Assembly: GCA_965112155.1 (NCBI GenBank)
Contig: OZ218099.1
Direction: 5' to 3' (one strand)
From: Podarcis liolepis
Lineage: Eukaryota
DNA: 64,000 bases
Below the pieces are notes generated by a model. The model searched no databases. It saw only the letters and a list, made by a program, of their open reading frames with translations, and was not told where the DNA came from. Made by a program: the position numbers and the translations under genes. Shown in pieces: positions 204 to 62,316 of the stretch. The stretch's first letter is position 1; every line of letters begins with the position of its first letter.

Positions 204-1531
204 GTAAACTTGGATTACTCTTTTCCTGCAATAAATAATTAGGCTGACATACTTGCACAAAGTATGAAGTTCAAGTATTTATAGAATAGCTAAAGCAGTT
301 ACTTCCCCCTCCTATTTGTTAGTTTCTCCAGACTCTGGACCTCCTTTTTCTTTTGCTTCAAGTGGAAGCCGTCAGTAAAACATTTGTGTGTGCTTAATGG
401 CCTTGGCATAATACCACTTAAAAACACAGGCCATGTTTTCCAGCATTGCTTTCTGAAGTGGCTTCAGATTAGTAACACTTTTAAAATGTGATTTAAAATT
501 GAAGCCTTATCTGAAGATATGTAAAATGCACCTACCCTGTTTGCCTATTTTCCTCAGTATGATATTTTACAGTCTTGGGCAATCCTGTTATACCATAGAT
601 ATAATGTACAAGAGTCCTTTGAATATTAGGGGTTTTGTTGGAGTACAAGGTAACCAACTGACCTAGCCCTAGAGCTGTGTATGTACTGTCTGTCTGGTAA
701 ACTGGTAGAAAATGTGAGCTAAGCATATAAGTTACAGAAGTGATTAATTTTGGTTTGGATGAAGATGCCACTCAGTGTTGTTTCATTGTGGTTCCTCTAT
801 ATTGTAATACACCTACAGAACAAGATGGTGCAGAATTTGCCCCTGAACTGAAGTTTAAGGTCCATTTAACTTGGGACAGGCCAAATGCACTGGTTCCACT
901 CCATAATTAACTTCTTTTCAATGACTCTTGGAATTATGGGAAAGGTCGTTCCCATGTTCCATCTCTGCTCCTAGGCCTGGTGATATGGGTAGCCTCTTTG
1001 ACTGTGGTAACTATATTTCCCATTATATGGATTGGCTCAAGCGTTCCTAGGAACAACCAGTCCCAAGAGCAGGCTGAGGCCTCAACAATGGTAATTAGTA
1101 ATTAGGGATATAGAAGTGGCCTGACTCCCCAGTGTTCAGACTTGGAGCTGATTTGAAATCTTTTAAACTCTGGCATATGTGATGACAAAATTATCTGTTG
1201 TCATTGAGCATTTTGTGTTCCTGCAGACTCCAGTTAATCTGTGCATTATGCAGAATGGATGATACTCCTAGTCCAAATTCACTGCTGAAATCTTGTAAAT
1301 TCTGACAATGACACTTTGACATTGAAAACTTTGTCAGAAACATCTTAGTGGGTACACATACTACCTACTCGGGATGTAGAGAATAAATTAATAAATGTCT
1401 GCTGTCTGACAAAATGAACAATGCTTCTATCAGCTGAAAATGGTACAGCTTGAGGAATTGATGAAGTCACATAAATAACCATTCTTCTGTTCTGAAAATG
1501 GTTTGAATCAAAACATACCTGAAATATATTA

Positions 1532-2719: not shown

Positions 2720-3565
2720 CCTGGTTTGCAAATAACACTAAGCCAAACCATGGTTAAACATGAATGTGTGAGCCTGTGACTACTTATATCAAAAATTGCA
2801 GCTGCTTCATACCTCCTCTGGTCCTCCTGCTTCCAGGGGCAGCCCAAAGCATTTTGGTGATTGAGACTAAATGCCCTGCTGCCGCCCCCACATTTGGGGT
2901 GTGTATGCATGAGGCTCTGTAGGGGCTTTTTCTCTTTCCACTCCACTGGTGGTGGTGGTGGTGGGATGTAGGAAGGGATTTCCCCCTTGCTGAGACTCCC
3001 TGCCCTGCAGAGAACTTTCCTGCGGGCCTCCTTCTGCCCCCAGGGGCAGAGAGAGACCAGCAGCAAAGCAGAGTGGTGGAACTCCCCACTCTCTCCAAAA
3101 CTAGGCGAGAGTGGGGTGTTCCAGTGGTAGCAGAAGCAGTGGGGCAGGCTGGGTGCTGCCTCTTGCATTTCTGCCACCTGAGGCAGCTGCTTCACCCTCC
3201 CTCATTTGGGTGCCTGCTTTGCCTGCTGCCACACTGCCTGGAGCTTAACCATGGTTTGGCTTAGAATTACATCTGAACCTGTGCTTGTGATTTGTCTTGC
3301 TCCAGACAAACCATAAGCTGTAGCTAATGGTATGTTTGGGTGCGGGGGGTGGGGTGGGACTTACAGCTCATGGTTTGTCTGGGGAACGCAAACCACCATG
3401 AGCCTTGATTTGGATGTGATGCCATGCCAGACCATGGCTTTGCTCCAGGAAGCATGGCAGAAGGATGACCAGAGGAGTGAAGATGCTGCCATCTTTGCTG
3501 TGAATACATATATGCTTACACATTCCTCTTTAGCCATGGGTTGGCTTAGCATTACATGCAAACTG
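2720..3565. mobile_element. Degenerate old element(s) with long inverted arms (aaccatggtt family)
   Basis: 2720-2850 is an imperfect reverse complement of ~3437-3565; a third partial arm lies near 3245-3277. Confidence 0.55.
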
Positions 3566-20200: not shown

Positions 20201-20302
20201 AAGCCTAAGAACCACTGAACAATCATAAGGGAAGTGAAACAATATATATATATATATTTAACAATGTTTGAAAGGCTGTTTTTCTTCTCATTTGACATGC
20301 AG

Positions 20303-20326
20303 CAAGGACATATGGGAGAAGGCGAG
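20303..20326 (+). CDS. CPEB4: CPEB4 24-nt alternative (neuronal) microexon, (A)RTYGRRR(G)
   Basis: tttttcttctcatttgacatgcag|CAAGGACATATGGGAGAAGGCGAG|gtaaca. Phase 1-1, 24 nt, encodes ARTYGRRRG as in mammalian CPEB4 exon 4. Confidence 0.95.
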
Positions 20327-20894
20327 GTAACAACATTCCTCTTTAATTTTCTGATGTTTAAAATGTCTCATGGCACAGCTAATGCACAATCTGCTTCTGT
20401 AAGGAGGACTGGAAGCAGTTTTTTTTTAAAAAAGCCAGGCTTCCTCAATTTGCATGCTGTGGTAACCTTTAGTAACTTAATGTAGTGGCTCCCAAAATTA
20501 AGACTACCTAGGCAGAATTAGGATAGTTATACTGAGGCATGGGGATGAGGAGGCGTCAGTGTTACTACAGTGTAGACTATATACTATATATGTAGGTCTG
20601 ACCTTATGTGTGGGTGTGGGTGGTTGTTGCTTAGAAAAGCACCTAAGTGACTTGGGCTCCAGGTCTATTTTTCAAAGGTGACTTTGGCCATGATGCACTG
20701 TAATAGGAAAAAGACAATGGTTATCATATGTACTCTGACATGGGTGATTTAATACTGCTTCTTAAATAGTGTGCCCTTGTGGAATCAGATTGCTTTTCTG
20801 GTTCTCTCCTGTGAACAAGCTAAAAATGTGTCTGAGAGGTGTCTGGAGCCTTGGAACTGTAATTGTGTGTTTTGAAGAGCTATTCAGCTGCTTA

Positions 20895-23947: not shown

Positions 23948-24121
23948 GTCAGTCTTCACTGTTCCCAATGGAAGATGGGTTTTTGGATGATGGACGTGGG
24001 GATCAGACGCTCCATAGTGGCTTGGGATCACCACACTGCTTTTCCCACCAGAATGGCGAGCGAGTGGAACGGTACTCCCGCAAGGTGTTTGTAGGTGGTT
24101 TGCCACCTGATATTGATGAAG
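23948..24121 (+). CDS. CPEB4: CPEB4 exon 5 (174 nt), GQSSLFPMEDG...RKVFVGGLPPDIDE, start of RRM1
   Basis: ccattgtag|GTCAG ... GATGAAG|gtatac; RNP2 motif KVFVGGL; CPEB4-specific LDDGRGDQ.LHSGLGSPHCFSHQNGERVERYS. Confidence 0.97.
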
Positions 24122-26010: not shown

Positions 26011-26100
26011 ATGAGATCACCGCTAGCTTTCGCCGCTTTGGCCCTTTGATTGTGGATTGGCCTCACAAGGCTGAAAGCAAGTCCTATTTTCCTCCTAAAG
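26011..26100 (+). CDS. CPEB4: CPEB4 exon 6 (90 nt), DEITASFRRFGPLIVDWPHKAESKSYFPPK-G
   Basis: tgacctgcag|ATGAG ... CCTAAAG|gtaaca; hand translation matches CPEB RRM1. Confidence 0.96.
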
Positions 26101-26728: not shown

Positions 26729-27613
26729 CCGTATTTTTCGCCCCATAGGACGCTCCGTCCCATAGGATGCACCTAGTTTTTTTGGGGGGGAAATAAAGGA
26801 AAAAAAATTCCCTTTATTTCCCCCCCAAAAGCAGGTCGGGGAAACAGAACCAGGTCGAGGAACAGCGGGATGGCGGCGCTGCGCCTCCCTGCTGTCCCCC
26901 GAGCTTGTGGGGCTGGCTGATGTCTGCCCCGCGCGAGGGGCGCTCTGCATCAGGGCGCCCCCCCCTGCAGGGCCAGCAGGCTGCTATCCGCAGCATGGGG
27001 AGCCTTGCTGGGAACTCCTGCAAGGCTCCCCACACTGCGGATGTCTGCCTGGCGCGGGGGGCGCTCTGCTTCAGGCCGCCCCTCGCGCCGGGCAGCAGGC
27101 TGCTATCTGCAGCGTGGGGAGCCTTGCCGGGAACTCCGGCAAGGCTCCCCATGCTGCGGATGTCTGCCTGGCGCGGGGGGCGCTCTGCTTCAGGGCGCCC
27201 CGCCCACCGGGCAGCAGGCTGCTATCCGCAGTGTGGGGAGCCTTGCCGGGAACTCCGGCAAGGCTCCCTACGCTGCGGATGTCTGCCTGGCGAGGGGGGC
27301 GCTCTGCTTCAGGCCGCCCCTCACGCCGGGCAGCAGGCTGCTATCCGCAGCATGGGGAGCCTTGCTGGCAACTCCTGCAAGGCTCCCCACGCTGTGGATG
27401 TCTGCCTGGCACGGGGGGCGCTCTGCTTCAGGCCGCCCCTTGCGCCGAGCAGCAGGCTGCTATCTGCAGCATGGGGAGCCTTGCCAGGAACTCCGGCAAG
27501 GCTCCCCACGCTGTGGATGTCTGCCTGGCGAGGGGGGCACTCTGCTTCAGGGCGCCCCGCCTGCCGGGCGGCAGGCTGCTATCCGCAGCATGGGGAGCCT
27601 TGCTGGGAACTCC
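26729..27613. mobile_element. Truncated Tc1/mariner-type non-autonomous element carrying an internal tandem array
   Basis: TA|CCGTATTTTTCGCCCCATAGGACG left terminus; no matching right terminus seen. Confidence 0.6.
26919..27613. repeat. GC-rich tandem repeat, ~119-bp unit x ~5.8, each unit with two palindromic arms
   Basis: gatgtctgcc recurs at 26919, 27040, 27159, 27278, 27397, 27516. Confidence 0.95.
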
Positions 27614-27964: not shown

Positions 27965-28083
27965 GATATGCATTTTTGCTGTTCCAAGATGAAAGCTCTG
28001 TGCAGGCTTTGATTGATGCATGTATTGAAGAGGATGGAAAACTCTATCTGTGTGTTTCCAGTCCCACAATTAAAGACAAACCG
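27965..28083 (+). CDS. CPEB4: CPEB4 exon 7 (119 nt), GYAFLLFQDESSVQALIDACIEEDGKLYLCVSSPTIKDKP
   Basis: ctacatag|GATATG ... AAACCG|gtaagt; contains RNP1 GYAFLLF. Confidence 0.96.
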
Positions 28084-29100: not shown

Positions 29101-29215
29101 GTTCAAATCCGGCCTTGGAATCTTAGCGATAGTGACTTTGTGATGGATGGCTCACAGCCTCTAGATCCGCGGAAAACCATTTTTGTAGGAGGAGTTCCAC
29201 GACCCTTACGGGCAG
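29101..29215 (+). CDS. CPEB4: CPEB4 exon 8 (115 nt), VQIRPWNLSDSDFVMDGSQPLDPRKTIFVGGVPRPLRA
   Basis: ctgcttgtag|GTTCAA ... GGGCAG|gtatgg; RRM1-RRM2 linker and RRM2 RNP2. Confidence 0.97.
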
Positions 29216-29463: not shown

Positions 29464-29645
29464 TGGAGCTTGCAATGATAATGGACCGGCTGTATGGAGG
29501 AGTTTGCTATGCTGGAATTGACACAGATCCTGAGCTGAAGTACCCAAAAGGAGCTGGGCGTGTTGCATTTTCTAATCAACAGAGTTACATAGCTGCTATC
29601 AGTGCCCGCTTTGTTCAGCTGCAACATGGAGAGATAGATAAACGG
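29464..29645 (+). CDS. CPEB4: CPEB4 exon 9 (182 nt), RRM2: VELAMIMDRLYGG...QHGEIDKR
   Basis: ttttatttag|TGGAG ... AAACGG|gtaagg; ORF-track peptide matches CPEB4. Confidence 0.97.
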
Positions 29646-33260: not shown

Positions 33261-33488
33261 GTGGAAGTTAAGCCATATGTCTTGGATGATCAGCTGTGTG
33301 ATGAATGTCAGGGGGCCCGTTGTGGTGGAAAATTCGCTCCATTTTTCTGTGCTAACGTTACCTGTCTGCAGTATTACTGTGAATATTGCTGGGCTGCTAT
33401 CCATTCACGCGCTGGCAGGGAATTCCACAAGCCCCTGGTGAAAGAGGGAGGAGATCGCCCGAGACATATTTCATTCCGCTGGAATTAA
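33261..33488 (+). CDS. CPEB4: CPEB4 terminal coding exon, ZZ-type zinc-binding domain, ends ...RHISFRWN*
   Basis: tttaacacag|GTGGAA; CDECQGARC...C..C...YCEYCW..IH...H pattern; the GDRPRHISFRWN C-terminus distinguishes CPEB4 from CPEB2/3; TAA at 33486-33488. Confidence 0.97.
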   Translation: MEVKPYVLDDQLCDECQGARCGGKFAPFFCANVTCLQYYCEYCWAAIHSRAGREFHKPLVKEGGDRPRHISFRWN

Positions 33489-35602
33489 GTGATTCCTGCA
33501 GCGTGTTCATATGCAGGCCTCAAAATAAGTGCACTCTTCTGTTATCCTGATTCCCATGCCCTCCCTTCCTCTTCTCTCTTATTCAAGATAGCATGTCCTA
33601 CTGTTGTAGTCTGTAACTTAACAATAGTGTAACAAAAGAATGACCTATAATCATATAGGTATTTTGTAGAATCTTGTCATTAAACTGTATTGGGAACTGC
33701 TATTCATATGGATAACACAGTGCATGGAAACCAGGTTCTCTTACCTTTAGTTACCCAGGGGGACACTGCTTTCCTGCTATCTTTTCTTGAAGGAAGAGAG
33801 AACAATATTAAGAGAAGAGAAATGAAACAATAGAGTATTTTGTTTTTTAATTAAATTATTGCTAATAACAAAATCAATAGAATACTTTTATGAAAAGTAA
33901 TCATGAGATAGGAACACTATGAATCTATTCTGACACTTTGTCCAACCCACCCTTCCTTCTGCCCTTCCCTGCCCAAACCTCTGGGAAGCCTGTTTTCTTG
34001 CCGCCTATGATTTTATAGCAATGGAAACAGTTAGCCGTTAACCTAGTAACAGGAAAGAGCATGTTTAAAGCAACAAAAATGCATGAGCAAGGTTTAAAGC
34101 AGCATTAAGTTAAATGTTTTATTTAAGGGTTCCGAAGCTATTTTTTTAGCACAGTACGTGTTTCTCACCGTGCCTCCGACTTCCCACCACATTCAAACTT
34201 TTACTAATTGAGTAGGCAGAGCTTAGATCTGTGTTCTTCATCCAAGCAATCACATTTTAAAAGTTCCTGAATGTAAATCCTGGGTCAATTTACTACTGGG
34301 GGTGGGTGGGGAGTGCACTTATTCTTTGTTGTTGTTGTTGTTGTTGTTATATTATTATTATTATTATTTTTAAAGAAGAAACTTCATTATCAGAATACAG
34401 CCCTAGAAATCCTACCAAAGCTAAAGTAATGACAACTAGTGAACTGGCATGTCCTCTCCTGAAGAACAAATGTATAGATTTTATTTTTGATGGTTATATA
34501 GAACTCTATATCCTAATTTACTAATGTTAATCAGGGGCCAGCCTTTGCTCTCCATTTTGACGTGAAATACAAGAACCTAAAGATATACCTCAAGATTATG
34601 ATTTTGATTCCCACCTCCCCCGCCTGCCTCTAAGACACTAGTAATTCATTCTAACCACACAAATCAAAATTTGGCTACTTACTGGGCTTACTCTGGGACG
34701 TAAATGTGTTTTAATCTCCAAATGAAATTGGATCATCAAAAGCATGAGAGGGACAAAGTGAAGTCTGTTTCCAGGGATGTTATGCACTGTTGGTTGAATG
34801 AATATGCATTGCATATTGGCAAAGAAGAATATGCTTGTCTTTCAGCAGAGAGCAAGTAAGAAAATCTCAATAAATAATTCTTTTTGGAACTTAGCACAGA
34901 AAATAAAGAATTCCAGGGCTCTAATGTACCAACTTGCTGAGAAATGCATCGGTTGTTTGAACCATATAAGTGAGAACACAGTAGATGTTAAAGCTAAAGC
35001 ACAGGGTGGTGTTGGTTAGTTTGATATAGTCACTCGAGCTCTGTAAAGCTGAGAAAATTGATAGGAGTGAATGAGTTCAGTTCTTAAGAAATGATTTTGT
35101 AGCAGTGTGCAAAACAACCCAGTCCATTGGCAATCTGAACTGGCATGGTACCACCATAGACTCTTAAACCAAAGACTTGCCTTAGCACACCTACAGACAA
35201 AAAAAAGCAAATCTCTTCTGTAAGCCCTCTCCCTCCCCTTTCCTTCCCCCTCCCCAATTATCTTTGAGAAGCAGTTTTGATTTTCAACACATGAAACATA
35301 CCTTGTTATTTTCCAAAGGTCAAAATGGAGACATTTGCTGTCTACTCGTCAAGTAGAGAAAGGGAGCTGCTTTTAATGAAATCCCTGCAAATATTGACAA
35401 CAGTAAATGCAAATGGAGAGTGCTCTTTTGTAGACTGTCAGGGACCTTTTTCTCTGAAGTACATAATTATAGTTGGAATATTCGTTTTAATTTTTTTAAA
35501 TGCTTGTAGGTGGCTTGGGGTGTCTTATTGTGCCGATCCTACCCAGTGAACAGGTGAGATGGGTTACCATTACAAGAAATAACACTGTTTGAGAAGTAGC
35601 TT

Positions 35603-35950
35603 NNNNNNNNNNNNNNNNNNNNNNNNNNNNNNNNNNNNNNNNNNNNNNNNNNNNNNNNNNNNNNNNNNNNNNNNNNNNNNNNNNNNNNNNNNNNNNNNNN
35701 NNNNNNNNNNNNNNNNNNNNNNNNNNNNNNNNNNNNNNNNNNNNNNNNNNNNNNNNNNNNNNNNNNNNNNNNNNNNNNNNNNNNNNNNNNNNNNNNNNNN
35801 NNNNNNNNNNNNNNNNNNNNNNNNNNNNNNNNNNNNNNNNNNNNNNNNNNNNNNNNNNNNNNNNNNNNNNNNNNNNNNNNNNNNNNNNNNNNNNNNNNNN
35901 NNNNNNNNNNNNNNNNNNNNNNNNNNNNNNNNNNNNNNNNNNNNNNNNNN
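35603..35950. other. Assembly gap (N run)
   Basis: Run of N. Confidence 1.
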
Positions 35951-36934: not shown

Positions 36935-37804
36935 NNNNNNNNNNNNNNNNNNNNNNNNNNNNNNNNNNNNNNNNNNNNNNNNNNNNNNNNNNNNNNNNNN
37001 NNNNNNNNNNNNNNNNNNNNNNNNNNNNNNNNNNNNNNNNNNNNNNNNNNNNNNNNNNNNNNNNNNNNNNNNNNNNNNNNNNNNNNNNNNNNNNNNNNNN
37101 NNNNNNNNNNNNNNNNNNNNNNNNNNNNNNNNNNNNNNNNNNNNNNNNNNNNNNNNNNNNNNNNNNNNNNNNNNNNNNNNNNNNNNNNNNNNNNNNNNNN
37201 NNNNNNNNNNNNNNNNNNNNNNNNNNNNNNNNNNNNNNNNNNNNNNNNNNNNNNNNNNNNNNNNNNNNNNNNNNNNNNNNNNNNNNNNNNNNNNNNNNNN
37301 NNNNNNNNNNNNNNNNNNNNNNNNNNNNNNNNNNNNNNNNNNNNNNNNNNNNNNNNNNNNNNNNNNNNNNNNNNNNNNNNNNNNNNNNNNNNNNNNNNNN
37401 NNNNNNNNNNNNNNNNNNNNNNNNNNNNNNNNNNNNNNNNNNNNNNNNNNNNNNNNNNNNNNNNNNNNNNNNNNNNNNNNNNNNNNNNNNNNNNNNNNNN
37501 NNNNNNNNNNNNNNNNNNNNNNNNNNNNNNNNNNNNNNNNNNNNNNNNNNNNNNNNNNNNNNNNNNNNNNNNNNNNNNNNNNNNNNNNNNNNNNNNNNNN
37601 NNNNNNNNNNNNNNTTTGTATGTTCTACTCTAAGTTATAACACAAGTTTCTTTTTTAAGAGAGTTCATTTGTNNNNNNNNNNNNNNNNNNNNNNNNNNNN
37701 NNNNNNNNNNNNNNNNNNNNNNNNNNNNNNNNNNNNNNNNNNNNNNNNNNNNNNNNNNNNNNNNNNNNNNNNNNNNNNNNNNNNNNNNNNNNNNNNNNNN
37801 NNNN
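36935..37804. other. Assembly gaps (36935-37614 and 37673-37804)
   Basis: Runs of N around a 58-bp island. Confidence 1.
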
Positions 37805-43581: not shown

Positions 43582-43743
43582 NNNNNNNNNNNNNNNNNNN
43601 NNNNNNNNNNNNNNNNNNNNNNNNNNNNNNNNNNNNNNNNNNNNNNNNNNNNNNNNNNNNNNNNNNNNNNNNNNNNNNNNNNNNNNNNNNNNNNNNNNNN
43701 NNNNNNNNNNNNNNNNNNNNNNNNNNNNNNNNNNNNNNNNNNN
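43582..43743. other. Assembly gap (N run)
   Basis: Run of N. Confidence 1.
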
Positions 43744-48720: not shown

Positions 48721-49429
48721 AGATTCCCAGTGCCAACCTGTCTCCTCTTTCCTGTAATAAATCTTAGCCCCCTGAGCACCTACAGAGGTGCTAAGGTGAT
48801 TCTTATGCTGTTGTTTTCAAATTGTGCTTACCATACTGGACTGGTAAGAAAAGCAAAACAGAAACACATTTACTGCAGTCTGGATGCTTCTACTCTAATG
48901 GACTTGGTGCAGAGCCTCTATGTTGCTCGCTCAGATAGCTTCTTCTTGACACCCTGGCTGTCAGATGATGATGAGCTAAATATAAATACGCGCTTTCTTC
49001 ACTGCAAGAAGCTGGAATATTTTGACGTTCAAGCCCCTCCATGGAAACAAGTTGCTTACTCACTGCTGCTGCTGCAGTATGAGTCACCCAGGAATATTCT
49101 TAGCACAGCCAGATGACAATGGGCTCCCAACAGCCAACCATCCCTGCCAGCTAGCCTGCCCAGTGGCAAGGCATGATGGGAGTTGTAGTCCAAAAATGTT
49201 TGGAGGCCAGCTTGGGAAAAGCTGTCTTTAATATGAATACGTGTGTTCTCATTTTGTGTTCCTCGACCCCAACGCTTAAGGCTGTGCAATTTTCAGGAAA
49301 CACCCCCCCCCCCCATTCCAGACACATTCCCCCACCCTCAAAGAATTCTGGGCAATGTAGTTTTCCCTTCACAGAGTTACTCTCCCCAACAACCCTGCAC
49401 AAACCACAGGGCCCAGGATTCTCTGAGGG

Positions 49430-50030
49430 GGACAGTGCGGGCGCCCCGCTTCTCCTCATTGGCTCACCCCACAACTCCTCCCCCTTTGTATTCCTGACAG
49501 GAGAAAGCCCCTTATCCGAGGCTCCGCTTCCCTCGGGATGAAGGCCAGCTCTGGCCTGGGAAGGGGCAGGTCGCGGCGGGTGGTTTATGTGAACAGTTTC
49601 GGCAGCCACCGCTGCGGCAACGTGATTCGTTATGGCGGCGGCGGCCACCTGAGGGACCCGGAGGCTTCCTGCCTCTCGGGCGCGTCTCCCGCTGCCGCAC
49701 TCTCGGGCAGAAGAGGCTCTCGGGGTGCAGCCGGTCCTCCCTCCGGGGAACGAGGGAGCCCTTGCTTGGGGCTGAAAGCCCCTGGCGAGGCGAGAACGAA
49801 GGGGGTCGGGAGAGGCTGGGAGGAAGGAGGCGAGGCGAAGAGGCCCAGAGCCGAGAGGCTGCTTGGGGTCAAGCCACCGGCGTCGCCACGCAAAGGGCGG
49901 AGCAGCAAGGCGGCGGCGGCGGCTGTCAACTCCACAGGCTCCGACGGCCAGGAAGAAGCGGGTACGAGCAGAGCGCAGGGCAGGAGGCCGCGTGTCCTCG
50001 CCGGTATCGTCTCGTGGTGTTAATGGCGAG
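49430..50030 (+). promoter_or_regulatory. CpG island / promoter and first exon of C5orf47 orthologue
   Basis: Abrupt rise in GC and CpG density; inverted CCAAT (ATTGG 49458-49462) and GC-rich boxes just upstream of ATG 49538. Confidence 0.8.
49538..49961 (+). CDS. C5orf47: C5orf47 orthologue, coding exon 1
   Basis: RRVVYVNSFGSHRCGNVIRYGG resembles recalled human C5orf47 ARFVYVTRFGSHQCSGVLQLGG; ATG with G at -3; phase-1 donor GCGG|gtacga; syntenic directly downstream of CPEB4. Confidence 0.85.
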
Positions 50031-50040
50031 GGTTGGCAAT

Positions 50041-50700
50041 CAATGCCGGATTTACGTATAAGCTAAACAAGCTATAGTTTACAGCCCCACTCTCTTGCCC
50101 CTCCCCCCCAATTTCACTATTAATATACCTCTTAATTATATTTCAGTTCAACAATTACTTTGATAAAATACATATTTTGTTATGGGCAAATGGCTTTAGA
50201 TACCTAGTAAAGGTAAAGGGACCCCTGACCATTAGGTCCAGTCGTGACCGACTCTGGGGTTGGGGCGCTCATCTCGCTTTATTGGCCGAGGGAGCCAGCG
50301 TGCAGCTTCCGAGTCATGTGGCCAGCATGACTAAGCCGCTTCTGGCGAACCAGAGCAGTGCACAGAAATGCTGTTTACCTTCCTGCCGGAGTGGTACCTA
50401 TTTATCTACTTGCCCTTTGACGTGCTTTTGAACCGCTAGGTGGGCAGGAGCAGGGACCGAGCAACGGGAGCTCACCCCGTTGTGGGGATTCGAACCGCCG
50501 ACCTTCTGATTTAAACCTTCTGGTTTAACCCACAGCGTCACCCGCGTCCCTAGATACCTATTAGGTGCATAAATTACCATATAGCATATATTCAACACAA
50601 AAACAGCGACAATTTGTAGTTGACAAAGGACAGCTGGACATATAAAGGACCCCATTACCTCCAATAGCTTAGGGCCTCATCAAACTTAAATCTGGCCCTG
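50041..50700. mobile_element. hAT-type MITE interrupted by a Sauria SINE
   Basis: Termini CAATGCCGGATTTA / TAAATCTGGCCCTG; 8-bp flanks ttggcaat / tttgcaat (7/8). Confidence 0.75.
50207..50550 (-). mobile_element. Sauria SINE
   Basis: 5' end GGGACGCGGGTG on the - strand, B-box GGTTCGAATCCC, (ACCTTT)n tail; perfect 10-bp TSD tagataccta (50197-50206 and 50551-50560). Confidence 0.92.
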
Positions 50701-51109
50701 TTTGCAATACTTGCATATCCCCTACCATGGTGGTTCTGCCTTGGGGTGGTGAGGGTCTCACAATAATCCGGATGAAGGAACTGGTGGGCGGAATCATTTC
50801 TTGTCCATTTTGAATGTGGGATTTCCCCTTGCATAGGATTGTGCTCCCTTGAGGAGTGGGAAATAGTTCTGCTGACTAAGAAGCTTGGCCTGCCTTTTCA
50901 TTTAACGGCTTGCAATACCAAGCCTTGCCCCGTTAAAATAAATAGACAGCAACCTCCTGGCCCTCAGGATTTTTTCTTTTTTTAAAAAGTTTCTTCATGT
51001 GTCAATGCAAGACTGGTTGCCAGTTTGTTGCCAGGCCCGATTCAAGACGCATTTAAACACATCAGTGTCTAAATGGCTTAGGCCCCAAATATCCAAAAGA
51101 ACGCCCCAT

Positions 51110-52287: not shown

Positions 52288-52817
52288 TTTGCATAGTCCT
52301 GCAGGTAGAAGGGCAAACCCATCCAAAGATTCCCTCTATTCCCTGAAGAACAAGAACCTTAACGGTAGTTCTAATGATATTTTTCGGCACATCTAAAGAC
52401 ATTAGAAACTCTCCCCCCATTTGTACTGCAGTAAAAAGCCTTTCTCACAGCAGCAGCAGCAGGAAACATATTGAATTCTTCCCCCTGCCCCCAATTCTGA
52501 TTGCCATCTTGCCTTCGTTTCCAGCTACTATCTGAAGAACAAGATGAGCTTCGTAATGCAGCATTATGCTGTACCCTCTGCAAGGCTGACATTCATGCTT
52601 TGAAGTGATATGAAATATTGATCTTTCAAAGTGGTTTGTGAGAGATTGGCTCCTATACTTGCACCATGATTGCAAGGGAAGGTGGGGGAAAATAAGATTT
52701 TAATTAGAGCTACATGATCTGATTTAAATCTGTGATGTCTCACAGCCACATGTTAGCAGTTTGATATTAGTAGCTGAAACAAACACAGTGGCAAATAAAA
52801 TCCAACTCTTTTAATAG

Positions 52818-52906
52818 GTGGCTGCAAGGAAACTCAAGGAGATGCATTTGAATTTCCTCCTTCCTGGGAAGTTGATAACAGTGAGATCAGGCATCAAAAG
52901 AAAGAG
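52818..52906 (+). CDS. C5orf47: C5orf47 orthologue, exon 2 (89 nt), GGCKETQGDAFEFPPSWEVDNSEIRHQKKE
   Basis: ctcttttaatag|GTGGC ... AAAGAG|gtagaa; phase 1 to 0, joins exons 1 and 3 in frame; AFEFP...QKKE aligns loosely with human KYDFP...KKKKK. Confidence 0.75.
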
Positions 52907-55947: not shown

Positions 55948-56050
55948 TCCACAGTCTGGCTTGGAGTGTGTAAAGTAATTTCTAAAATGATAGAAGAAAA
56001 TGGACACTTTAGAAGCAGATTGCTGTCCTGTAGCAAACTTCCAAGTGAAG
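55948..56050 (+). CDS. C5orf47: C5orf47 orthologue, exon 3 (103 nt), STVWLGVCKVISKMIEENGHFRSRLLSCSKLPSE-G
   Basis: tctctatttctag|TCCACA ... AGTGAAG|gtaggt; strong match to recalled human VLVWNRVYKVISRMLEENEKYRHRLKCQRLSSE. Confidence 0.88.
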
Positions 56051-59000
56051 GTAGGTAAGAAGTAAGCTTCTTGTGGTACTCTTGACTCCATTACTATGCC
56101 CAGAGTGGAAAGTTCTGGTGATATCCAGACATACATTTCACCAGTATCATCTGGTAAGATGGACTTTACATTCTGCCATGCTAAATAACATCCACTCCTT
56201 TGTTTCCTTGGGATCTGAAAACTGTGGCCCTAATCTAATTAAGGTTAATTGGGCTTAATGCCTCTGAAATAAAAAGGAGAAGGTGGTCATGAACGATTGA
56301 GTTTCCACTGATTTGAATGAGACTTGAAGCAGAGATAAATTTAGTTGGATAGGGTTCTAATTTGAATTGTTTCAGGAGGGGCTCCCTGTGAAAACTGCTG
56401 TGATGCTGCAGTGAGTTAATACAGGACACAATGGCTTTTTTCTAAGAAGGAGAGCTCACAATGAAGTACTTTGGGAGCAGATTGCACACCTGCTTCCTCT
56501 AATCTTGCAGGCAGAACTCAAACCCACAGTTTGGACAGAGAAAGCCCTAACTGCCTCAGGCTTGCATAGGCACTAGTGCCCCAATACCATCCATAAATTA
56601 TATTTGAATATAAGAGATAGATACCACTTATTCTCAGTACCTATCCCACGTTTATAAAACACTTCTGGATATTTATCAGACTAATTGTCCAGAAGTAGTA
56701 TTTTACATGTGTTCTGACATGTGGTGACTGAGGTTTACCTTCTGTATTCATTGCTTTAAATAACAATGTCACTCCTTTTCTATGGAGCCTCTGGGATGGT
56801 GTTGAGGGCAGAATTTACAGTTAAGCTTCCCTAGCAAAAGAGATACTTGCTACTTTTCCAGGATTAAACTAGCTATCACAGCTGACATCATCTACCTCTC
56901 CTTTCCATACTTTCATTTTACAATGCTATGAATGAGAGATGAACAAACTTCAAGAAGGAATGAGAAAATTTTATTTAGGAGACCACTGTAAGCAGATGAA
57001 AACATTAGCAGGATTTTAACAACACTTGTAATGTAACAAATACTATGGACAATATGGAGAGATACAAAATATGGATGATGAAATATTATGCAGTTGAAAA
57101 AGTTGACAGTAGGACCCGTGGAGGGGAGGGTGGGAAGTCTGGAGATTCAGAGAAATCTCTATATATGGTTATGTATTTGGCATTGTTATAACCTTTCACT
57201 TGTAAAATCAAATAAAACATTTTTTTAAAAGAGAGATGCACAAAGATGCTGCCATACTCGTTTGATACAAAATCTATCATGAAAATGAGTTTCTTCTGTA
57301 AAATTAGAAGATGACTGCCTATAATATATGAGTATTACATAAATAAGTGAGCTTCCAATGAATGCTGGCTATGACTTACACTAATATAATATTAGAATAT
57401 TTGCGGCCTAATTGAGGCCTGGATGCAAATGAATGATGAATGGATGGATGGAAATGAAGCATGAATTAAAACTGACATTCTATTGATGCAGTTTCCATTA
57501 GAGCTTTGTAGCTGCTGCACAATTCAAAGTAACACAATATTATGCTTACAATCATAATTGGAATTTCTGGCTTCACAGTTTAATTAGTTTTAGGAAACAG
57601 ATTTACCAATCCATTAAGTGTTATGTGTTAAATTTAAAGTGACATATTCTCAGTTTGTCTGCTGAGCTTACATTAATGTCAATAGAGGTCTGCAAACTAT
57701 GTGAGTATAGAATATGCATTGGTATTTGGAAATAACCATTGGTAGTTTCTGTTAGCAGTCTTTTGTATTTCCTTTTGTTGTTCACATTCCATATAACTCC
57801 AAATAGCCAAACTTAAATTAGCTAGAATTTCTAATTATCTATTAGGAAAGTCCAATATTGTAGACTGGTTTCAGCTATAGTAGCATGGTTTCAATTACAG
57901 TAGCATAAACATTGACAGTACCATGACAGTGATTTTGACACTTACTTCCAAGTAAAAATACATAAGATTTTACTGTAAGTCACTCTGTGTTCAGTGGGGC
58001 TTTCTCCAGATAAGTGTGTATAGGATTGCTGCTTCACTATAGGATTAGGGTATTAAACCAGTATCTAATTTCCTCTGATGAGCTCAGGTAAGTAGTCAAA
58101 ATTCAACAAGTCATTTAGAATATTAGTAATAGGTACTTGTGCCCCACTCCTAGACTGAAAGCAAATCCCATGGTTTTGAGTGGCACTTCCAATTCCTATG
58201 TGTGTTTACCACTCACTGAACTCCACAGAGTTCACTTCTAAGTAATCGACCAATTTTACTCAGAGTAGGCCTGTTGAAATGAATGGATCCAACTTAATCA
58301 TGTTCATTAATTACAGTGGGTCTATTCAAAGTAAAACTTAGTTGAATACCACCCAGTGGAATTTACTCCAGGTAAGTGTGTATCAAATTAAACTATGTCC
58401 AGTGGGGCTTTTTGGTGGATTTCACTCTCTAAATGTCGTATTATTTATATGTCCCCTCTCTGTTCCTGTATTCCCAAACCACTGCAATACCTGTATGCAA
58501 GCAGAGGAACTAATTTGTGGTCTTTATGACTGAGGTTCCGTTGGCCCGGTTTACAGCTGCTGCAGCTGTGATTCATAATACTTGAGGTTCCCCTACAGCC
58601 TTTTTCTGCCTTGCTTTCTCACTAAATTACAAAAAAAGAGTTATAGGGTTTTCCAGAGCATTTGTGTTTTATTTAAAAACAAAAGAAAGCCCAAAGCTAA
58701 CATTCTGTCTTGACAGATATGAATCACTTAAAAATTCATCCCTCTTCCACTGGCTTTGACAATAGTAAGCGTGGCCTAGTTGAGAGCTTTGATTGTACAC
58801 CAGGAGGAAGGAAGGGACATTGGTATCCCCCCCCCTTACTTGTGTTTTCTGATGCCCATTGTTGTTATCATCCATTAGAAATTACATAGTGGCAATAATC
58901 TTTGGCTATAATTTGCTTCTTTTTGAAAGGCACCATTATGTTACCCTCAGTGCTAATTGTAGTTCATTTTTGCAGAGCTTTAATAGTGGCTCACTTATTA

Positions 59001-61962: not shown

Positions 61963-62316
61963 AAGGTAAAGGTAAAGGGACCCCTGACCATTAGGTCCAG
62001 TCGTGACCGACTCTGGGGTTGCGGCGCTCATCTTGCTTTATTGGCCGAGGGAGCCGGCGTACAGCTTCCGGGTCATGTGGCCAGCATGACTAAGCCGCTT
62101 CTGGCGAACCAGAGCAGCGCACAGAAACACAGTTTACCTTCCCGCCGGAGCGATACCTATTTATCTACTTGCACTGGTGTGCTTTCAAACTGCTAGGTTG
62201 GCAGGAGCTGGGACTGAGCAACAGGAGCTCACACCGTCACGGGGATTCGAACCGCCAACCTTCTGATCGGCAAGTCCTAGGCTCTGTGGTTTAACCCACA
62301 GCGCCACCTGCGTCCC
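61963..62316 (-). mobile_element. Sauria SINE (full length)
   Basis: Highly similar to 50207-50550; (ACCTTT)n tail; TSD atattcgcata / atatttgcata (10/11). Confidence 0.92.

Follow-up and report, generated by a model that had tools for sequence, protein, structure and literature searches.

An intact, likely neuronal CPEB4 microexon in the lizard Podarcis liolepis, with the neighbouring exon 3 probably lost

The CPEB4 microexon has been linked to autism in people. Positions 20303–20326 of a 64,000-nt stretch of Podarcis liolepis DNA (assembly GCA_965112155.1, contig OZ218099.1; hereafter the window) raise the question of whether this lizard keeps the same switch, in which exon context, and to what effect on the protein. 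With a probability of roughly 85%, we read these 24 nt as an intact squamate CPEB4 microexon 4, likely included for the most part in neurons, where it would give the protein four extra arginines, in a gene that has probably lost exon 3.

The window carries CPEB4 on the plus strand from exon 2 onwards (human numbering), whereas exon 1, which encodes the histidine cluster, lies upstream of it. Exon 2 (122–203, 82 nt, AG/GT-bounded), the upstream partner of the microexon, was located by tblastn with named CPEB4 proteins, and so were all downstream exons through the ZZ domain. These are exon 5 (23948–24121, 174 nt), which begins with G-Q-S-S and continues into RRM1, exon 6 (26011–26100, RRM1), exon 7 (27965–28083), exon 8 (29101–29215), exon 9 (29464–29645) and the coding part of the last exon (33261–33488), with the ZZ domain (PF16366) and a stop near 33488. 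The exon 5 query returned 769 protein matches, and among the 120 listed the named ones are CPEB4 or hypothetical. Many of the matches listed share 100% identity with exon 5, named CPEB4 proteins of birds, turtles and snakes among them; exon 5 also matches the CPEB4 RRM structure PDB 2MKI. Exons of a DUF4680-family gene, presumably C5orf47-like, lie 3' of CPEB4 at about 52.8 and 56.0 kb (52799–52906 and 55948–56052), in an order shared with a bird model in which both genes are fused.

Several other elements were observed around these exons. The intron between exons 6 and 7 holds a GC-rich 119-nt tandem repeat (26919–27613, 5.8 copies, 89% matches). Runs of N occur at 35603–35950, 36935–37614, 37673–37804 and 43582–43743, three of them in the likely CPEB4 3' UTR region. 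Within the 3' UTR, 11 of 15 residues translated from 35514–35558 match a bird model that uses the stretch as a false exon, which suggests conservation of the UTR. A CpG island (49001–51000) lies 3' of CPEB4, with the DUF4680-family gene, and a Pfam search of four GC-rich ORFs at 49–52 kb returned nothing. Finally, two copies of an interspersed repeat of about 350 nt, 88% identical, are found at 50207–50550 and 61966–62316.

The microexon (me4, plus strand) lies between an AG at 20301–20302 and a GT at 20327–20328 and encodes ARTYGRRR. Inserted between exons 2 and 5, it has phase 1 at both ends and keeps the frame, and translation from exon 2 to exon 5 is stop-free in both the included and the skipped splice form. 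It is flanked by introns of 20,099 nt on the 5' side and 3,621 nt on the 3' side. Being frame-preserving, with canonical splice sites, it belongs to the SRRM3/4-type size class (3–27 nt). The original prediction of a bounded 24-nt exon encoding ARTYGRRR is thus borne out by the splice sites, the frame and the peptide score, and the assignment to CPEB4, the exon boundaries and the orthology with the mammalian microexon 4 stand as well. It had placed the arginine-rich segment beside the disordered N-terminus; the segment is indeed arginine-rich, but its position is within the disordered N-terminal domain, close to the end of that domain.

As to the effect on the protein, PMC11711090 reports for human CPEB4 that the insert adds four arginines, which interact with the histidine cluster and prevent aggregation of condensates. 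The histidine core was found at residues 232–243 in the snake, turtle, bird, frog and mammal isoforms that we retrieved. In the lizard, these arginines would pair with the histidine cluster that exon 1 encodes, and CPEB4 condensates would thereby stay reversible. Inclusion would further supply the missing part of a basic kinase motif ahead of the serine pair at the start of exon 5, and the neural microexon could then act mainly as a phosphorylation switch, through a PKA/CaMKII-type site, RRRG-Q-S-S, at the junction with exon 5, with condensate buffering secondary. This order of importance is possible, though in our judgement somewhat unlikely. It draws on PMC4767366, where an eight-residue region of CPEB3 makes two downstream serines targets of PKA and CaMKII, a result that the authors extend to CPEB2–4. 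The G-x-S-S junction is retained in all vertebrate rows of our comparison, and an invertebrate-type contig (L006) has ARPYGRRR, followed by G-K-S, at the corresponding position. However, the direct demonstration in the accessible text of PMC4767366 concerns CPEB3, with CPEB4 covered by extension, and according to PMC11711090 depolarisation changed the modifications of neither CPEB4 variant. The phosphorylation and condensate roles are compatible, and a preference for condensate buffering does not preclude a kinase site at the junction.

The exon context differs from the one known in mammals, where an exon 3 of 51 nt precedes the microexon according to PMC12628316 (57 nt in bioRxiv 2022.09.22.508890). 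The mammalian four-isoform layout was not encountered in the window. The 20,099-nt intron between exon 2 and the microexon (204–20302, plus strand) is free of N gaps and contains no recognisable 51-nt exon 3, and none of the 35 AG|51|GT candidates in 204–23947 is exon 3-like. Six exon 3 peptides compared with this intron gave best scores of 23–28, against self scores of 80–90 and a null of about 21–32. A 14-sequence exon 3 profile peaked there at 22, while true copies score 57–71. Since no exon 3 was found between exon 2 and the microexon, the junctions 203->20303 and 20326->23948 given in the original prediction are the right ones; the absence of exon 3 from P. liolepis CPEB4 is a point that it did not raise.

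Immediately after the exon 2 donor, one frame of 204–240 (plus strand) resembles the peptide produced by intron read-through in birds and, weakly, exon 3. Judged from its translation, this motif shared with birds may be a conserved splice element, a relic or chance. That an exon 3 relic survives joined to the exon 2 donor is a weak lead that we hold very doubtful, the resemblance having been spotted post hoc. The stretch at 207 ranks fourth of 20,100 diagonals against exon 3, with a score of 20.6 (six other donors score 6–10). Three unrelated positions outscore it, the matching bird stretch reaches only 8.8, and the intron starts of fish CPEB2-type genes yield similar-looking peptides.

We then compared exon 3 and microexon peptides across 311 proteins, of which 231 were classed by source name and 80, almost all unnamed, were left out. 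Cluster members were sampled, at most 15 for each cluster, from clusters of up to 513. The counts cover the listed proteins with an exon 2 anchor, and each row is an isoform model rather than a species or a genome. Among them, the exon 3 peptide is present in 0/15 squamate, 0/15 turtle, 0/1 crocodilian, 0/104 bird and 0/16 frog proteins, and in 32/42 mammal, 5/5 salamander, 3/3 caecilian and 8/18 fish, coelacanth and ray proteins. The microexon peptide occurs in the same anchored proteins listed in 3 squamate, 9 turtle, no crocodilian, 40 bird and 9 frog models, as well as in 19 mammal, 2 salamander, no caecilian and 6 fish, coelacanth or ray models.

Many bird models have something else in the exon 3 slot. 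Among the matches listed, 65 of 104 (e.g., P0013, P0074 and P0265) carry a GKF-type stretch there, which comes from reading through the exon 2 donor: genomic ORFs show intron sequence on both sides of it. These bird inserts are a systematic annotation artefact. Three RefSeq bird models, P0056, P0059 and P0065, have a partly exon-3-like insert with a profile score of 24 (two were scored), compared with 57–71 for true copies; by its sequence, it could be a decayed exon 3 copy or a forced alignment. In a fish-type ORF, P0289, exon 2 runs directly into exon 3 and intron-like sequence flanks the pair, which points to an incompletely spliced RNA or to loss of intron 2.

The same inserts in P0056, P0059 and P0065 are a reason to consider that sauropsids still have exon 3 in a diverged or length-changed form, or that it is missing from the assembly and the gene models, which we regard as unlikely. 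The counts describe protein models rather than genomes, with no more than 15 members listed from clusters of up to 513, and one protein search was run with an exon-3-less query. Against this, the intron has no N gap, its best match to exon 3 scores 25 (self score 82, null 24–32) and its best by profile 22. The peptide is present in 0/135 anchored sauropsid proteins among the matches listed, the slot filler in 65/104 bird models is intron read-through, and an exon-5-only query, free of the exon-3-less bias, gave the same split. An ancestral layout with two cassettes, followed by one loss of exon 3 in sauropsids and another in frogs, is the simplest reading of these sequences and probably correct. 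We also lean, less firmly, towards the fuller proposal that the two losses were independent and left the microexon unchanged, that neuronal CPEB4 in these lineages has two isoforms, and that the microexon rather than exon 3 is the indispensable switch. No published report of the exon 3 loss was found in the accessible literature; a comparative paper on CPEB splicing (PMC2935813) may cover it.

The missing exon also bears on how the published biophysics is numbered. PMC11711090 places the microexon at residues 403–410, counts 18 arginines in the domain, and names isoform Q17RY0-2, residues 1–448, for the in vitro work and Q17RY0-1 for the work in cells. Among the retrieved mammalian proteins, the 712-aa exon-3-less form fits 403–410 and 18 arginines, whereas the 729-aa form has the microexon at 420–427 and 19 arginines. 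Because of this fit, the in vitro condensate work likely describes the exon-3-less layout, the one to which squamates, with their microexon at residues 402–409, are limited. Full-length CPEB4 is reported to predominate in human brain (bioRxiv 2022.09.22.508890); reptiles, to judge from their sequences, would make only exon-3-less forms.

With respect to regulation, several features of the microexon acceptor are relevant. A predicted branch-point motif was found by motif scan at 20258–20262 (plus strand), with the putative branch A about 42 nt 5' of the exon, and the polypyrimidine tract (20279–20293, plus strand) is set back from the AG. The pyrimidine fraction is 0.64 at -5..-15, the lowest of the gene's eight acceptors, and 0.73 at -16..-30; UGC stands at -5 and the branch motif at -45. 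These features resemble the neural microexon pattern described in PMC12871342, a resemblance that is weak evidence. The acceptor octamer that includes UGC (20295–20302, plus strand) occurs once in the 23.7-kb region and is identical to the 8 bases before the microexon in a fish-type cpeb4 contig (L001). SRRM3/4 would recognise the set-back tract together with UGC, and neurons would then join exon 2, the microexon and exon 5, while other cells would join exon 2 to exon 5. UGC directly before AG is a common acceptor ending and, as a sequence feature, weak support for SRRM4, because UGC-AG also ends the ordinary exon 2 and exon 6 acceptors. UGCAUG, which we take to be an RBFOX-type motif, is found 125 nt 3' of the microexon (20451–20456, plus strand), a weak indication given 12 copies in the 23.7-kb region. 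The 224 nt around the microexon show no unusual structure (folding z 0.40). A (TA)n microsatellite (20242–20257) adjoins the predicted branch point upstream, and variation in its length could affect inclusion.

In mouse, inclusion is confined to neurons and depends on SRRM4 (PMC11711090), and the microexon is absent from two non-neuronal human lines (PMC12628316). In chick brain, inclusion rises from HH15 to HH27, together with SRRM4 (PMC12871342), and zebrafish srrm3 mutants show a delta-PSI of -27 (PMC13281805), so that conservation and regulation of this exon outside mammals are already published. In the accessible text of PMC12628316, a pull-down with the human upstream region recovered hnRNPC and PTBP1 and not SRRM4, which argues against a simple SRRM4 model. 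By analogy with chick, mouse, human and zebrafish, mainly neuronal inclusion is likely in P. liolepis. It could be argued that the microexon is spliced here constitutively or in other tissues, since exon 3 loss alters the upstream splicing context and the microexon now follows a 20-kb intron. We consider this highly unlikely: skip forms are commoner in squamate models (11/15 among the matches listed), which speaks against constitutive use, and chick, also without exon 3 by the bird pattern, still shows brain-stage regulation (PMC12871342).

The boundary pattern alone is weak evidence, as the upstream intron offers 53 stop-free AG|24|GT candidates, and the ORF scan found no ORF of at least 110 aa overlapping the microexon. 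ARTYGRRR reaches a BLOSUM score of 42, the maximum, compared with 18–28 for the best match in 12 shuffled introns, and about 9e-9 occurrences with both splice sites are expected by chance. A chance match or dead exon drawn from those 53 candidates is therefore next to negligible as an explanation, given this expectation, 8/8 residues shared with the vertebrate peptide, intact splice sites and a conserved acceptor.

Splice forms are known here from database isoforms, which are gene models. Both forms are present among those of squamates. Two of 205 proteins, both snake isoform-1 models, contain the included form (93 aa) without a mismatch, and eight of the 205, all squamates, including Elgaria and Rhineura, likewise contain the skipped form (85 aa). 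Among the matches listed, the microexon is found in 3 of the 15 anchored squamate proteins, all snakes, while the three anchored lizard and amphisbaenian proteins are all skip forms. The microexon is thus already in public squamate annotation.

Among named database proteins, the microexon peptide spans fish to mammals. Mouse isoform primers (bioRxiv 2023.03.19.532587) agree with the window at 11/12 bases of the exon start and 7/8 of its end. In contig L001, an AG|51|GT exon (2010–2060) is followed by an AG|24|GT exon (2980–3003, ARSYGRRR) and by exon 5 from about 3420. A degenerate microexon pattern had no matches in metagenome contigs; a protein-based scan of contigs gave 80 loci, two of them vertebrate-type, with the microexon in L001 only. 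None of nine non-vertebrate-type genomic loci has a microexon-like mini-exon 5' of the exon-5 equivalent. In the invertebrate-type contig L006, which is spliced and CPEB2-4-like, ARPYGRRR stands at the microexon position within 1–210, before G-K-S, and the near-identical genomic contig L005 has an intron directly after ARPYGRRR. These sequences raise the possibility that the arginine segment is older than the vertebrates.

Two losses of exon 3 with the microexon retained would, if real, mean that selection acts on the arginine insert rather than on the exon next to it. The lineages concerned, reptiles, birds and frogs, would in that case offer a simpler two-isoform system for the autism-linked switch, and in vitro condensate results, numbered without exon 3, should carry over to them. 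As a natural experiment, reptile and bird neurons would be unable to make the CPEB4 form that predominates in human brain. The comparison also exposes an annotation error, in that many bird CPEB4 models put intron sequence in the slot of the missing exon.

As snake annotation and published chick and zebrafish regulation already cover the microexon, P. liolepis adds one more species to a known system. The closest counterparts are snake CPEB4 isoforms X1 (711 aa) and X2 (703 aa), exact over 93 and 85 residues, with no sequence difference there. Chicken (PMC12871342) and zebrafish (DreEX0023919, PMC13281805) have the same cassette, with brain-stage or srrm3-dependent regulation reported; the accessible text of these two papers covers no squamate and does not mention exon 3. 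Human and mouse microexon 4 (PMC11711090, PMC12628316) is like that of the window in its 24 nt, phase 1-1, ARTYGRRR peptide, adjacency to exon 5 and exon ends. However, human and mouse CPEB4 are described with an alternative 51-nt exon 3 before the microexon and four isoforms, whereas the window has no exon 3 and two forms are predicted. More distantly, the "B region" of CPEB2 and CPEB3 (PMC4767366) is an eight-residue, paralogous 24-nt cassette before the exon-5 equivalent, and one CPEB2-type protein (P0311) has both segments, a 17-residue one and ARSYGRRR. Unlike the context of that region, the flanking exons in the window are CPEB4-specific.
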